64,000 nt of DNA from contig DATITA010000012.1 in NCBI GenBank assembly GCA_035468355.1, forward strand, positions 15,228-79,227, in the 5' to 3' direction. Both the position numbers and the translations under genes were made by a program. The DNA comes from Candidatus Dormiibacterota bacterium (lineage in GTDB: Bacteria > Chloroflexota > Dormibacteria > Dormibacterales > Dormibacteraceae). The notes beneath the pieces were generated by a model, which was not told the DNA's origin, ran no database searches, and worked only from the letters and a program-made list of their open reading frames with translations. How positions within the stretch are numbered: position 1 is the first letter of the stretch; every line of letters starts with the position of its first letter. Below are positions 46,423-53,288 of the stretch, in pieces.

Positions 46423-48405
46423 ATGCGAGCTTCATGCCGGCGTCGCTTTGAGAGCGGACAGGCGATAGTGCTGATCGCCATCATGCTGGCGGTCGTCGTC
46501 GGGATGGCGGCTCTCGCGATCGACGGCTCGCGCGCATATTCCATGCGGCGCGACCTCCAGGCGGCGGTGGATGCCGCGGCGCTGGCGGCGGCGGACAACC
46601 TGCAGCAAACGGGCAGCTACACGTCGGCCGAGCAGGCGGCATCCACCATCTTCGGCATCGACGCGCGCTTCTATGGGGCGCCGTCGTGCTCCCCGGGGTA
46701 TGGGTCGCCAGGCGCATCGCCCTTCACCGTGACCTGCACCTATTCGGACGGGACCACGCTGACGGACGTCGTCTCCAACCTGGGTTCGCAAGGCGCGCAG
46801 TTCAGCTTCACCGCGGCACACTCGCTCGCGCTTCAGTTCGCCCGCATCCTGATGAGCGGGACGCCGCCCAAGATCGTCGCCACCTCCTCCGGCGGGGTGG
46901 ACAACCTCCTTTACACCCCGGCCGTCGGCGCCCTGGCCAGTGCTGGTTGTGGCGGGACAGGTGGCAGCGCCGTGACGGTCAACGGCTTCGGGACCGCCAG
47001 CATGGTGGGTGACCTGGTTTCCAATGGCGCCATATCGGTGGCCGGCGGCAGCCTGCGCGTCGCCGGCGACATCTATGCACGATGTCAGGCCTCCGTCCCC
47101 GGGTCGTCGACGGCTTGCTTTCCAAGCGGGCTGGCCGCCCCGTGCACGTTCCCTGACGTTAACGGAGCCGTTCGTTCCGGCTACCAGCTGGGCGATCCGA
47201 ACTTTCCGGCGCCAGCGGTTACCGGCGGCAGCCGGGGAGCACCGGGAAGCACCGTGGTGCTCCAGGCCGGGTCATATGCTGCCAATCCCGGTTTCAGCGG
47301 AGGGCACTGCTGGTTTCTAAGCGGTGGCGTCTACCAGTGGCAGTCCGGCTACACGAACAGTCGGGACTTCGTGAGTAACGAGCTGAAGCCCCCTGACGAA
47401 CCGGCAACCACAAACGTCCGTCAGGTCTCCGCTCACCAGTTCTGGAACACGAACGGCGTCCAGTGCGCCGGGTCGGTCCTGGTGAGCGGCGTCGGCGGAC
47501 CGAACACCCTCGACAAGGGCAACTTGGGTGTGGTGCTGACCTCCGTGCGCACGGACTCCTACGGTGGCGCCACCTACCGCCGTGAGAGCGCGCCGTCGGC
47601 GTGCCAGGCAGTCCATATCAAGGTAGGCGAGGTGCTCCAGGTCCAGGTGAGCAACGTGCCCGGCGCGACTTCCTACAACGTGTATGCCAGCGACGTTGCG
47701 AACGGCTGCAAGGGACCATGGGGCTGGGCGGGCTCCATCCCGGTGGTCGGTACGGTGTCGAACAGCAACACCAACCCGTGCCCAACGTTCAGCGGCAACG
47801 GGTGCAGCCTGGGCCATGAGACGGCTCTGTTCGACAGCACTCAATTGCCCGACGTTTTTGCCCCCAACCCGTTGGCTGCGCTGGACACGTACGAGGCATA
47901 CCCACCAGATTCGGAGACCGCGCCGTTGAGCAGCACGCTGCCCAATCAGAATCCGCCGCGCGGAACCGGCGCCACCGGCGATCGCGCCAACGAGAACAAC
48001 TGCGAGACGACGACTGCAGCGTATTCAACGTGTCCCGACGCGGTCACCCCTGGCGCCGTCGAGTTCTATGTCCCAAATGGCGGCTGCCTGTCGACGACGA
48101 ACAGCGGCGACACGTATATGTTCAGCGGCTACCAGTACAACTGGCTGTCCGTTTTCGAACCTGGCGCCGGCTCGCCTCCCGCCAACACTTGCACGAACAC
48201 GCTTGGCGCCAGCGGGTTTTCGGCGTACGTGGGGCTCGTTTACGTGCCGTCGGCCGTCGTGGCCATAACCTCGGCGTACGCCTTCGAGGCAGCGGCGACC
48301 GGGGGATTGCTGGCCAGCTCGGTCACCTTCACCGGAGCTCTACCAACAATCACGTACAGCTCCAGTTACGGGCCGGTGCCGCCGGCCGCCCGCCTGACCG
48401 GTTAG
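46423..48405 (+). CDS. TadG-like large pilus-associated protein
   Basis: The N-terminus ESGQAIVLIAIMLAVVVGMAALAIDGSRAY...DAAALAAA matches the Tad_N/TadG motif. It is followed by about 560 aa of Gly/Ser/Thr/Cys-rich, presumably extracellular, sequence. Confidence 0.7.
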   Translation: MRASCRRRFESGQAIVLIAIMLAVVVGMAALAIDGSRAYSMRRDLQAAVDAAALAAADNLQQTGSYTSAEQAASTIFGIDARFYGAPSCSPGYGSPGASPFTVTCTYSDGTTLTDVVSNLGSQGAQFSFTAAHSLALQFARILMSGTPPKIVATSSGGVDNLLYTPAVGALASAGCGGTGGSAVTVNGFGTASMVGDLVSNGAISVAGGSLRVAGDIYARCQASVPGSSTACFPSGLAAPCTFPDVNGAVRSGYQLGDPNFPAPAVTGGSRGAPGSTVVLQAGSYAANPGFSGGHCWFLSGGVYQWQSGYTNSRDFVSNELKPPDEPATTNVRQVSAHQFWNTNGVQCAGSVLVSGVGGPNTLDKGNLGVVLTSVRTDSYGGATYRRESAPSACQAVHIKVGEVLQVQVSNVPGATSYNVYASDVANGCKGPWGWAGSIPVVGTVSNSNTNPCPTFSGNGCSLGHETALFDSTQLPDVFAPNPLAALDTYEAYPPDSETAPLSSTLPNQNPPRGTGATGDRANENNCETTTAAYSTCPDAVTPGAVEFYVPNGGCLSTTNSGDTYMFSGYQYNWLSVFEPGAGSPPANTCTNTLGASGFSAYVGLVYVPSAVVAITSAYAFEAAATGGLLASSVTFTGALPTITYSSSYGPVPPAARLTG

Positions 48406-51400: not shown

Positions 51401-53288
51401 CGCCGCTGCCACGCTGGCCGGACATGAGCGGATCTTTGACGACCGGCATCATGCTGTCCGAGCCGGCGGGGACGAAGCGCGACTTCACCGGGTCAAACAG
51501 GTCCTGGTTGACCTGGACGCCGTAGAAGGCCGCCTTGTCGAGCGAGGTCGGAACGTATCCGGTGGCGTTGTACTCCAGGCGCAGGTCCGAGCCCATGCCG
51601 AGAAGGAAGACGTCCCGCAGGATGGCGCCGTTCGCGTCGTAGCCCACCACCTCGGCGATCTGAGCGACCTTGCGGCGGCCGTCCGGCATACGGGCCTGGT
51701 GGATGATGAGGTTCACGGCCGACGCGATCTGAGCGCGCACTGCCTCGAACGGGATGTCGATCGAGGCCATCATGACCATCGTCTCGAGGCGGGACAGGGC
51801 GTCGCGCGCCGAGTTCGAGTGGATGGTCGACATGCTTCCGTCGTGACCGGTGTTCATGGCCTGCAGCATGTCCAGCGCCTCTGCACCGCGGACCTCACCG
51901 ACCAGGATGCGGTCGGGCCGCATCCGAAGGCTGTTGCGCAGGAGCTGGCGGATCGTCAGCTCCCCCTTGCCTTCGACGTTGGGCGGGCGGTGCTCGAGCG
52001 CGATCACGTGCGGGTGATCGATCTGCAGCTCGGCGGCGTCCTCGATCGTGATCACGCGCTGGTTGTGGGGGATGAAGCGCGCGATGACGTTCAGCGTCGT
52101 CGTCTTGCCGGACCCGGTGCCGCCTGACACGAGGATGTTCATGCGGCCGAGCACCGCTGCCTGCAGGAACTCCGCCATGGCGGGGCTCAGGCTCCCCTCG
52201 CGGGTGAGGTCCTCCATGCCGAGCACGGCGTCCTTGAACTTGCGGATCGTCAGCGCGGCGCCGTGGATTGCGGCCGGCCGGATGATGGCGTTCACGCGGC
52301 TGCCGTCCGGAAGGCGGGCGTCGACCATCGGGTTCAGGCCGTCGATGTGGCGCCCGGTGGTGGCCACCATGCGCCGGATAGTCTCGAGCAGCTGGTTCTC
52401 GTCTTCGAATCGGACGTCCGCCTTGGTCAGGACGCCGCGCCGCTCGATGAAGACCTGGTCCGGTCCGTTGACCATGATCTCGCTCACGGAGCGGTCGTGC
52501 AGGAGGCTGTCGAGCGGGCCGTAACCCACCGCGGCGCGCAGGATGATGTCGGCGAGGGCCGACTTCTCCTGGGAGCTGAGGTCGATCCCGTCCTCGGTGA
52601 GGAACCGGTCGAGGTGGCTGCGGACAGCCCGCGAGAAGGCGAGGGTGTCGCCGGTCGTCAGCCCGACGTCGCGGATGAGAGCGAGCCGGTCTCGGAACTC
52701 GCTTGCGAGCTTGCTGAGGTCACGACCCTGGCGAGCTGCCGCCTCCATGATGTCCGAGCGCCGGCGCTGCGGCTGCGGGGCCGTGACCACCGGGGTCCAC
52801 ATGTCGACGAACTGCATCTCGAGGAGCGCCGGTGAGGCGGCGACGCCCGGGATGACCCGCTGGCGCTCGGTGAGGCGGATCCTGATTGCGAGGCCCTCGC
52901 CGTCGGGCTGTTGGCCCTGCTCGATGTAGGCCGCTATCCACTCGCCGTCGCGGAACCTGAGGATGGCCTTCCGAGCTGTGCTCGTGTCGTCCGGGTCGCC
53001 CTCCAGGCCCGGGTCCTCGACCGAGCCGAACACCAGGTATTTGATCTCGCGGATCGGGATCAGGCGCGGCCGCTCGGAGTCCGGCGGCGAGTAGAGCGGG
53101 TAGCCCTCGCTCCGCAGCGTGCGGGAGTCTGATTCGCCGTCTTCGAGACCGCCGTCCAGCCGGTGGACCCTCACCTTGAAGCGTGACGGTCGGGGCGCCA
53201 GGCCTCCGTTGGGCGCCGCCCCCTGCGCGACCGCAGGAGGAACCTCCTGGGGGTTCCTTTCCGGCGTCTCGATCCTGACCTCGCTCAT
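48402..53288 (-). CDS. multidomain fusion: unknown N-terminal domain + CpaF/TadA secretion ATPase + Pro/Gln linker + class III nucleotidyl cyclase + AAA_16/STAND + helical repeats
   Basis: One uninterrupted 1628-aa ORF; motifs are listed under the domain features and the findings. Confidence 0.85.
49419..49991 (-). other. domain: AAA_16/STAND NTPase-like module with a degenerate P-loop, aa ~1100-1290
   Basis: [13 protein letters not shown] (Met where the Walker A Lys is expected), Walker [13 protein letters not shown], and GNPLFVEQ. Confidence 0.75.
50034..50525 (-). other. domain: class III adenylate/guanylate cyclase catalytic domain, aa ~922-1085
   Basis: [37 protein letters not shown] and [11 protein letters not shown]. 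Confidence 0.85.
51489..52616 (-). other. domain: CpaF/TadA (T2SSE) ATPase, aa ~225-600
   Basis: Walker [10 protein letters not shown] (52098..52124), [24 protein letters not shown] and [10 protein letters not shown]. Confidence 0.9.

Follow-up and report, generated by a model that had tools for sequence, protein, structure and literature searches.

The 64,000-nt stretch of contig DATITA010000012.1 (assembly GCA_035468355.1, Candidatus Dormiibacterota bacterium; GC content 68%) that was analysed here, and which is referred to as the window and provides all coordinates, encodes a protein in which a CpaF/TadA-type motor ATPase of Tad pili, a class III adenylate cyclase and a degenerate AAA_16/STAND module with a helical tail are joined in one polypeptide. 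We regard this identity and the domain architecture as nearly certain. Comparison with unfused relatives shows that a free-standing cyclase-STAND-TPR protein was joined to the C-terminus of the CpaF/TadA motor of this clade. The component families are all known, and it is their combination that appears to be new: a literature search found no account of a fusion between a nucleotide cyclase and the ATPase of a pilus or secretion system, nor of pili or cyclases of Dormibacterota, which agrees with the initial annotation of this DNA, where the architecture had been taken as undescribed. Proteins of this type are already present in public databases under generic names such as 'pilus assembly protein CpaF' or 'ATPase, T2SS/T4P/T4SS family'.

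A single reading frame maintained across a clade

The fusion gene is open over its entire length (Table 1), and its GC contents of 0.72/0.48/0.89 at the three codon positions follow the usual coding pattern for the base composition of the window. Three Pfam families match within this one frame, namely T2SSE (residues 255-531, E = 1.2e-67, 228.6 bits at a cutoff of 24.9), Guanylate_cyc (residues 919-1079, E = 1.6e-23, 83.7 bits at a cutoff of 21.9) and AAA_16 (residues 1103-1277, E = 3.2e-24, 86.7 bits at a cutoff of 32.6). The initial annotation had proposed just such a single-frame fusion of CpaF/TadA, a class III cyclase and an AAA_16/helical module, and the motifs it had listed are all present where it had placed them. 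No other copy of CpaF, of the cyclase or of the STAND module occurs within the window, making the fusion the sole copy of each there.

A homologue search of 5.8 billion proteins with the fusion protein returned an identical protein (P0001) in a Ca. Dormibacteraeota metagenome-assembled genome (MAG) at NCBI and more than 120 clusters with the matching set of Pfam domains, 1598-1667 residues in length and 76-100% identical; the full-length open reading frame (ORF) was recovered from independent NCBI, ENA, JGI and Logan assemblies. Orthologous fusions were also sought in species-representative genomes with a probe spanning the junction (residues 800-1090), which matched 98 stretches, and the 80 loci in 78 assemblies with full coverage were kept. 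These loci are 74-97% identical to the probe and reside almost exclusively in MAGs of Candidatus Dormibacterota. The CpaF Walker A motif and the cyclase lie inside a single ORF in 53 of the 53 loci with a complete frame, and a version with motor and cyclase split was not seen among the 80 loci. Far from being a one-off, the architecture is fixed across a large clade of Dormibacterota.

Selection was estimated module by module as NG86 omega across 34 full genes. The values are 0.05 for the CpaF core, 0.11 for the cyclase, 0.14 for the helical tail, 0.16 for the C-terminal extension of the motor, 0.18 for the domain preceding the cyclase, 0.21 for the N-terminal domain and 0.22 for AAA_16, and purifying selection acts on every module of the fusion except the Pro/Gln/Ala-rich linker, where omega reaches 0.72 and is near neutral.

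Thirteen contigs carrying the same locus at 77-97% identity (L003, L005, L016, L032, L038, L039, L045, L054, L055, L057, L061, L071 and L076) belong to MAGs with labels outside the Dormibacterota (Nitrosotalea, Micrarchaeaceae, Verrucomicrobiia, Eisenbacteria, Acidoferrum, Sulfotelmatobacter, Thermoanaerobaculales or a name beginning Limnocylindr-). Their synteny is identical wherever the flanking sequence sufficed, and mis-binning or mislabelling of Dormibacterota contigs is the probable explanation.

The motor half

Residue invariance was read from a family alignment of 14 members. The ATPase core carries a Walker A motif GGTGSGKTT (389-397, with K395), an Asp box ITIEDAAEL (413-421), a Walker B motif (457-468) with the catalytic E465 and a His box (481-490, with H482/H490). 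K395, E416-D417, E465 and H482/H490 are invariant in all 14 aligned members, and the core as a whole is nearly so. Compared with solved structures, the core is closest to CpaF of Caulobacter (8RKD/9E24, E = 1e-100 to 1e-101), followed by weaker relatives such as an archaeal secretion ATPase (1e-45), FlaI (1e-39), VirB11 (1e-33) and PilT (1e-13). Judged by this conservation of motifs, the CpaF/TadA part is predicted to be an intact motor. The best match in NCBIfam, TIGR03819 (TadA family, actinobacterial helicase/secretion neighbourhood), scores 327.9 bits and thus stays under the equivalog cutoff of 373.15, placing the fusion outside this subfamily.

An N-terminal beta-rich domain, which comes in addition to those listed in the initial annotation, precedes the core. 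It resembles DUF6982 (PF22478), which is matched by four of seven aligned members with a best E-value of 1.1e-10; the window sequence itself reaches only E = 0.22. When submitted as a separate sub-sequence, the domain gave nothing significant against Pfam, and a profile search against PDB sequences yielded no match.

AlphaFold2 models built from the 14-sequence family alignment reached predicted local distance difference test (pLDDT) values of 38.6 for residues 1-660 and 54.5 for residues 757-1628, and only the secondary structure was retained from them.

Linker and winged-helix-like domain

The motor half is followed by a linker which varies between 50 and 95 residues among the 34 full genes and contains a short (CTGTGG)n repeat. 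Between this linker and the cyclase, the initial annotation had left about 150 residues unassigned. These turned out to form a conserved domain that is inherited from the CpaF side and not from the cyclase side: in unfused CpaF proteins of 852 and 863 residues, the final ~105 residues are 37-38% identical to the window domain. The AlphaFold2 secondary structure of residues 807-896, four helices followed by a beta-hairpin and a further helix (pLDDT 69-84), together with weak hints of GntR and SoFic_C, suggests that the part at about residues 807-915 folds as a winged helix. A profile search among PDB sequences returned no relative of the domain, nor did its window sub-sequence reach significance against Pfam.

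The cyclase domain

The domain carries the characteristic motifs of a class III cyclase, FTDVEEST (928-935), KGLGDG (970-975), GLNTGEV (1014-1020) and AVNVAAR (1031-1037). According to a residue-by-residue alignment to the Mycobacterium avium adenylyl cyclase Ma1120 (PDB 4WP3, 4WP8, 5D0E), D930 and D974 are the metal-binding residues, N1033 and R1037 those of the transition state, and K970, D1026 and A1036 occupy the three substrate positions that are altered in the KDA-to-EGY mutant of Ma1120, changes which switch that enzyme to GTP. All seven residues are invariant in the family alignment. As the initial annotation had already supposed, the domain looks catalytically competent, and the ATP-type Lys/Asp/Ala signature that accompanies the full catalytic set indicates cAMP as the likely product.

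The AAA_16/STAND module and the helical tail

The initial annotation had described the C-terminal module as an AAA_16-type NTPase followed by helical repeats. The profile match to AAA_16 bears out the family assignment, but the module cannot be considered a normal NTPase: the Walker A motif of the window protein reads GAPGIGMSR, with methionine where the lysine is expected, and in 117 of 120 members the position is taken by A, T, S, M or V and never by K, the pattern being unmatched in the remaining three. In contrast, nine free-standing relatives retain the lysine (GEPG[IV]GKTR). Walker B (hhhhDD with D1250-D1251, motif 1246-1256) is kept in all members examined, and a further motif, GNPLFVEQ, is located at 1344-1351. 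By these motifs, the nucleotide switch of the STAND module appears to have been lost in the fused form only.

The remaining part is all-helical in the AlphaFold2 model and weakly TPR-like; its TPR matches are all below threshold (E = 0.07-0.6), and it is shorter by about 400 residues than the corresponding part of the free-standing cyclase-AAA_16 relatives. The NCBIfam model TIGR03903, a kinase/cyclase-AAA-TPR fusion family, covers residues 904-1531. No helix-turn-helix (HTH) family of Pfam matches the fusion, which ends at residue 1628 after the helical module, consistent with the absence of a LuxR HTH noted in the initial annotation. A Foldseek search with the second AlphaFold2 model recovered no more than cyclases and AAA+/STAND folds of a generic kind, with low TM-scores, and was not used.

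Origin of the fusion

In a scan of 1.84 billion representative proteins, motor and cyclase were found together in one 50%-identity cluster only, among matches reaching down to about 374 bits, below which more distant fusions may lie. Other long proteins with several matching stretches had been considered as CpaF-cyclase fusions and were rejected, as they turned out to be tandem repeats of CpaF. These polypeptides of 876-1605 residues (P0121, P0122, P0123, P0126, P0127 and P0308-P0322) contain two to three complete T2SSE domains and may represent covalently linked motor subunits; one is labelled Chloroflexaceae and one is located on a contig of 3.77 Mb.

Both halves of the fusion have separate relatives. 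Unfused CpaF proteins of 852-870 residues, labelled Dormibacteraceae or Dormibacteraeota (P0125, P0277 and P0284-P0307), share with the window protein the N-terminal domain, the core, the extension, the linker and the winged-helix-like end; P0125 is 60% identical over residues 34-677 and 37% over residues 807-911. Unlike the fusion, these proteins end within a few residues of the position at which the cyclase starts. Since the winged-helix-like domain already terminates the unfused orthologues, the cyclase was appended in an end-to-end manner. The genes share the local arrangement of the fusion as well, with cpaF facing tadG and tadE, and cpaB, tadB and tadC following beyond these in the orientation of cpaF. 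The fused gene thus is the orthologous Tad motor, and not an extra paralogue, at this locus. The upstream neighbours differ, however, being genes for a PAS-GGDEF-EAL protein and Flp at one such locus (L002) and for Lon and a DEAD helicase at another (L083), and the partner-switch/response regulator-GGDEF operon which accompanies the fusion (see below) does not occur at these loci.

On the other side, free-standing cyclase-AAA_16-TPR proteins of about 1090-1117 residues (P0152, P0160, P0168 and others) have the cyclase at their N-terminus and match residues 920-1590 of the window protein collinearly at 37-41% identity, whereas they lack the N-terminal motor, run on for about 400 further residues and keep the Walker A lysine. 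By this comparison, the fusion consists of a protein of the latter type attached to the C-terminus of the motor, with the loss of the lysine and the distal repeats setting the fused form apart.

Genomic context

The fusion is the last gene of a conserved operon in which it follows genes for a STAS protein, an RsbW-like kinase, a small HisKA-only protein and a response regulator-GGDEF protein (Table 1). The numbers of loci given for synteny refer to related loci with the junction and vary from gene to gene; the STAS, RsbW-like and HisKA genes are conserved in 56-60 of them. The response regulator-GGDEF protein reads GGDDF instead of GGDEF/GGEEF at its signature motif in 62 of 62 related loci, and its Pfam GGDEF match spans only positions 21-116 of 161. 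Together with the divergent phosphatase gene, the partner-switch set (54350-56581) resembles the HsbR/HsbA/HsbD module of Pseudomonas.

Table 1. Modules of the fusion protein and neighbouring genes, in window coordinates.
Feature	Residues	Position	Strand	Basis and remarks
CpaF-adenylate cyclase-STAND fusion, whole gene		48402..53288	(-)	1628 aa, ATG start, no stop inside
N-terminal beta-rich domain, DUF6982-like	36-165	52794..53183	(-)	common to unfused CpaF relatives
Helical bundle and CpaF/TadA ATPase core	177-592	51513..52760	(-)	T2SSE; Caulobacter CpaF
Conserved C-terminal motor extension with a conserved helix at its end	593-696	51201..51512	(-)	kept in family members and unfused orthologues alike
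Pro/Gln/Ala-rich flexible linker	697-763	51000..51200	(-)	variable in sequence and length
Conserved helix and winged-helix-like domain	764-915	50544..50999	(-)	old C-terminus of the CpaF subfamily
Class III adenylate cyclase catalytic domain (predicted)	919-1085	50034..50534	(-)	Guanylate_cyc; Ma1120 alignment
Degenerate AAA_16/STAND module	1100-1350	49239..49991	(-)	AAA_16; Walker A without lysine
Helical, weakly TPR-like C-terminal module	1351-1590	48519..49238	(-)	all-helical in AlphaFold2 model
Response regulator-GGDEF gene		53349..54353	(-)	Response_reg, GGDEF; 60 bp upstream of the fusion; 62 related loci
Small HisKA-only ORF		54350-54634	(-)	Pfam/precomputed annotation
RsbW-like HATPase_c_2		54610-55029	(-)	Pfam/precomputed annotation
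STAS		55032-55397	(-)	partner-switch gene at operon head
Divergent response regulator-PP2C (SpoIIE) phosphatase		55448..56581	(+)	Pfam; 54 related loci
tadE, tadE, tadG-like pseudopilin genes		45299..48405	(+)	Pfam TadE, TadE, Tad; 48-59 loci; convergent
cpaB/rcpC, tadB, tadC (platform proteins)		42657..45269	(-)	Pfam RcpC, T2SSF, T2SSF; 38-47 loci

As the initial annotation had pointed out, the sole TadA of the window is convergent to tadE-tadE-tadG and close to cpaB-tadB-tadC. The tadG-like gene (46423-48405, forward strand) and the fusion share 4 bp at their stop codons (48402-48405). A MerR gene lies beyond cpaB-tadB-tadC, the overall gene order hardly varies among the related loci, and the locus is flanked by housekeeping genes (obg, rsfS, mreBC, genes for penicillin-binding proteins, valS, clpPX, tig and suf).

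Other components of a Tad system were looked for in the window. No Flp pilin turned up there, either by its motif or by tblastn with the pilin-like ORFs of related loci, and the 64 kb also lack genes for a prepilin peptidase (TadV/CpaA) and for TadZ/CpaE. In L002, the relative with an unfused motor mentioned above, a Flp gene is located upstream of the PAS-GGDEF-EAL gene. We had considered the pseudo-STAND module as a substitute for TadZ/CpaE and dropped the idea: the genes listed around the unfused orthologue do not include a TadZ/CpaE-like one either, so that the absence is not specific to the fusion. Four ORFs of the window with a coding-like GC content at third codon positions have no Pfam match (29619-31277, 31697-32866 and 32725-33672 on the forward strand, 38357-39364 on the reverse strand).

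Proposed function and alternative explanations

Fusion of two proteins in the manner of a 'Rosetta stone' argues that the Tad motor and cAMP synthesis cooperate. We favour the reading that cAMP is synthesised at the pilus machine once this is assembled and working, and reports the state of the motor, a mechanism which, taken by itself, we hold tentatively and at somewhat less than even odds. For the account as a whole, in which identity and architecture are taken jointly with this mechanism, a probability of roughly 0.55 appears appropriate.

In such a mechanism, the CpaF part would assemble into a hexamer of the usual kind beneath the platform of TadB and TadC and power the polymerisation of the pilus, while each subunit would carry one cyclase on a long flexible tether emerging from the ring on its C-terminal side, which faces the cytoplasm. 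Domains of class III cyclases have to dimerise to be active. As CpaF works as a hexamer (PMC11656802), assembly of the ring would concentrate six of the tethered cyclases, and the pseudo-STAND/helical module would pair them. With the NTP switch of the STAND module gone, and most of its sensor repeats too, it is plausibly the motor, through its oligomeric or conformational state, that now controls the cyclase. The cAMP produced would then report the state of the machine to cAMP receptors encoded elsewhere in the genome, and the partner-switch and response regulator-GGDEF genes, which are conserved together with the fusion, probably act in the same decision. That the fusion might even be a direct mechanochemical reporter, and as such a new way of surface sensing, we consider distinctly unlikely.

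Several points weigh against the reporter function. The 64-kb window holds no gene for a cAMP receptor (cNMP_binding/CRP), the organisms bearing the fusion are uncultured, and the AlphaFold2 models are, at the pLDDT values given above, too poor to define contacts between the modules. The flexible linker could fit equally well with two halves that operate independently or are separated post-translationally. Finally, a C-terminal mCherry on Caulobacter CpaF covers the C-terminal face and abolishes retraction (preprint 10.64898/2026.02.24.707734), and by analogy to this effect the appendage may act mainly on the motor and not as a reporter.

With respect to cAMP receptors, two cNMP_binding proteins are encoded at 2082-4266 of L083, the other locus with an unfused motor, about 6-8 kb upstream of cpaF, and one of these carries a fused pyridine-nucleotide disulfide oxidoreductase.

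The last of the above objections leads to the main rival, in which the direction of information is reversed and the appended module regulates the motor, biasing it to extension only or gating its inversion, while cAMP is local or secondary. In addition to the mCherry effect, this explanation can draw on the fact that STAND-TPR modules typically act as sensors, and second messengers are known to feed into pilus ATPases, as is the case for cyclic di-GMP with PilB/MshE (PMC11656802). However, a module that served only as a steric block or scaffold would have no need of the invariant catalytic residues of the cyclase and its omega of 0.11, the loss of the Walker A lysine and of some 400 C-terminal residues weakens the case for a ligand sensor, and a tether of ~150 residues or more could swing the load off the face of the ring. 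We therefore consider regulation of the motor by the appendage rather unlikely.

It might further be speculated that one gene gives rise to two proteins, by cleavage in the linker or by an internal start for the cyclase half, and that the fusion ensures nothing but co-expression and stoichiometry. The length, variability and near-neutral evolution of the linker would agree with this, as would the free-standing counterparts that each half has elsewhere. Yet the junction to the cyclase is located outside the linker, directly after the winged-helix-like domain and with no spacer, and a single frame has been kept in each of the complete loci over a dS of ~0.7-1.0 with no split version among the 80 loci, which makes two separate products quite improbable.

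A role in anti-phage defence, with a Pycsar- or Avs-like cyclase-STAND sensor placed on the motor and triggered by pilus-dependent phage, can be envisaged since STAND NTPases are common as defence sensors, PADLOC reports a weak match of PycC to part of the cyclase domain (E = 4.6e-07), and the Foldseek neighbours of the poor model include RdrA and a STAND-TPR protein. The PycC score is no better than would be expected for any class III cyclase, however, and the substrate signature is of the ATP type found in Ma1120 and not that of a pyrimidine cyclase. Moreover, the Walker A lysine is lost, no effector gene is present nearby, and the housekeeping surroundings with their fixed synteny in 78 assemblies are unlike a defence island, so that we regard this role as highly improbable.

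Lastly, metagenome contigs may in principle be chimeric and the linker holds short repeats, but there is no positive evidence for a chimeric assembly or for a lost stop codon or frameshift joining two adjacent genes in one MAG, and the recovery of the same ORF from NCBI, ENA, JGI and Logan assemblies and from 78 species-representative genomes, including all 53 complete loci, the purifying selection seen to either side of the junction and the position of tadG, and not of a cyclase gene, downstream of the unfused orthologue leave such an artefact with a practically negligible probability.

Implications

Bacteria sense surfaces with type IV and Tad pili, and how the activity of the motor is converted into a second messenger is a matter of debate. 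Here, motor and cyclase are joined in one polypeptide that has been kept across a clade of an abundant, uncultured soil phylum. This provides a single expressible protein with which to ask whether assembly of the hexamer or its ATPase state controls the cyclase. The fusion also bears on the recent proposal that CpaF flips over to reverse, as it raises the question of whether a motor with a natural C-terminal load can retract; if the fusion did act as a mechanochemical reporter, it would be a natural test of this motor-inversion model. In addition, it illustrates the apparent conversion of a STAND module into a lysine-less scaffold.

Comparison with known systems

The closest well-studied counterpart of the motor half is CpaF of Caulobacter crescentus, a bifunctional Tad motor (8RKD, 8RJF, 9E24), the N2D and CTD core of which aligns with residues 223-592 of the window protein. 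All catalytic motifs of Caulobacter CpaF are present, its R387 corresponds to R495, and the C-terminal motif is retained, whereas P386 is replaced by alanine. Both proteins are encoded together with tadB, tadC, cpaB and pseudopilin genes. In contrast to the Caulobacter system, genes for TadZ/CpaE, Flp and a prepilin peptidase are not found near the fusion, and the window protein possesses in addition the DUF6982-like N-terminal domain and an appendage of ~1030 residues after the core.

For the cyclase domain, Ma1120 is the best solved relative (E = 4e-29), and the metal, transition-state and Lys/Asp/Ala substrate positions of the two are identical. Ma1120 is a minimal stand-alone cyclase, while that of the window is flanked by the winged-helix-like domain and the pseudo-STAND module. 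The order of cyclase, AAA_16 and helical repeats is shared with mycobacterial regulators of the Rv0386/Rv1358/Rv2488c type, which are free-standing class III cyclase-AAA_16-TPR proteins (PMC2447327) and were compared by way of the free-standing relatives and TIGR03903; unlike the window protein, regulators of the Rv0386 type carry a C-terminal LuxR HTH.

A functional link between pili and cAMP is established in Pseudomonas aeruginosa, where pilus activity is turned into cAMP synthesis along the route from Pil-Chp to the class III cyclase CyaB and on to cAMP-Vfr (PMC11656802). There, the link is a chemosensory phosphorelay between separate proteins and the pilus is of type IVa. With no homology of the pathways implied, the fusion described here might be seen as a functional analogue of Pil-Chp/CyaB in which the cyclase has become a covalent part of the motor of a Tad (type IVc) pilus.

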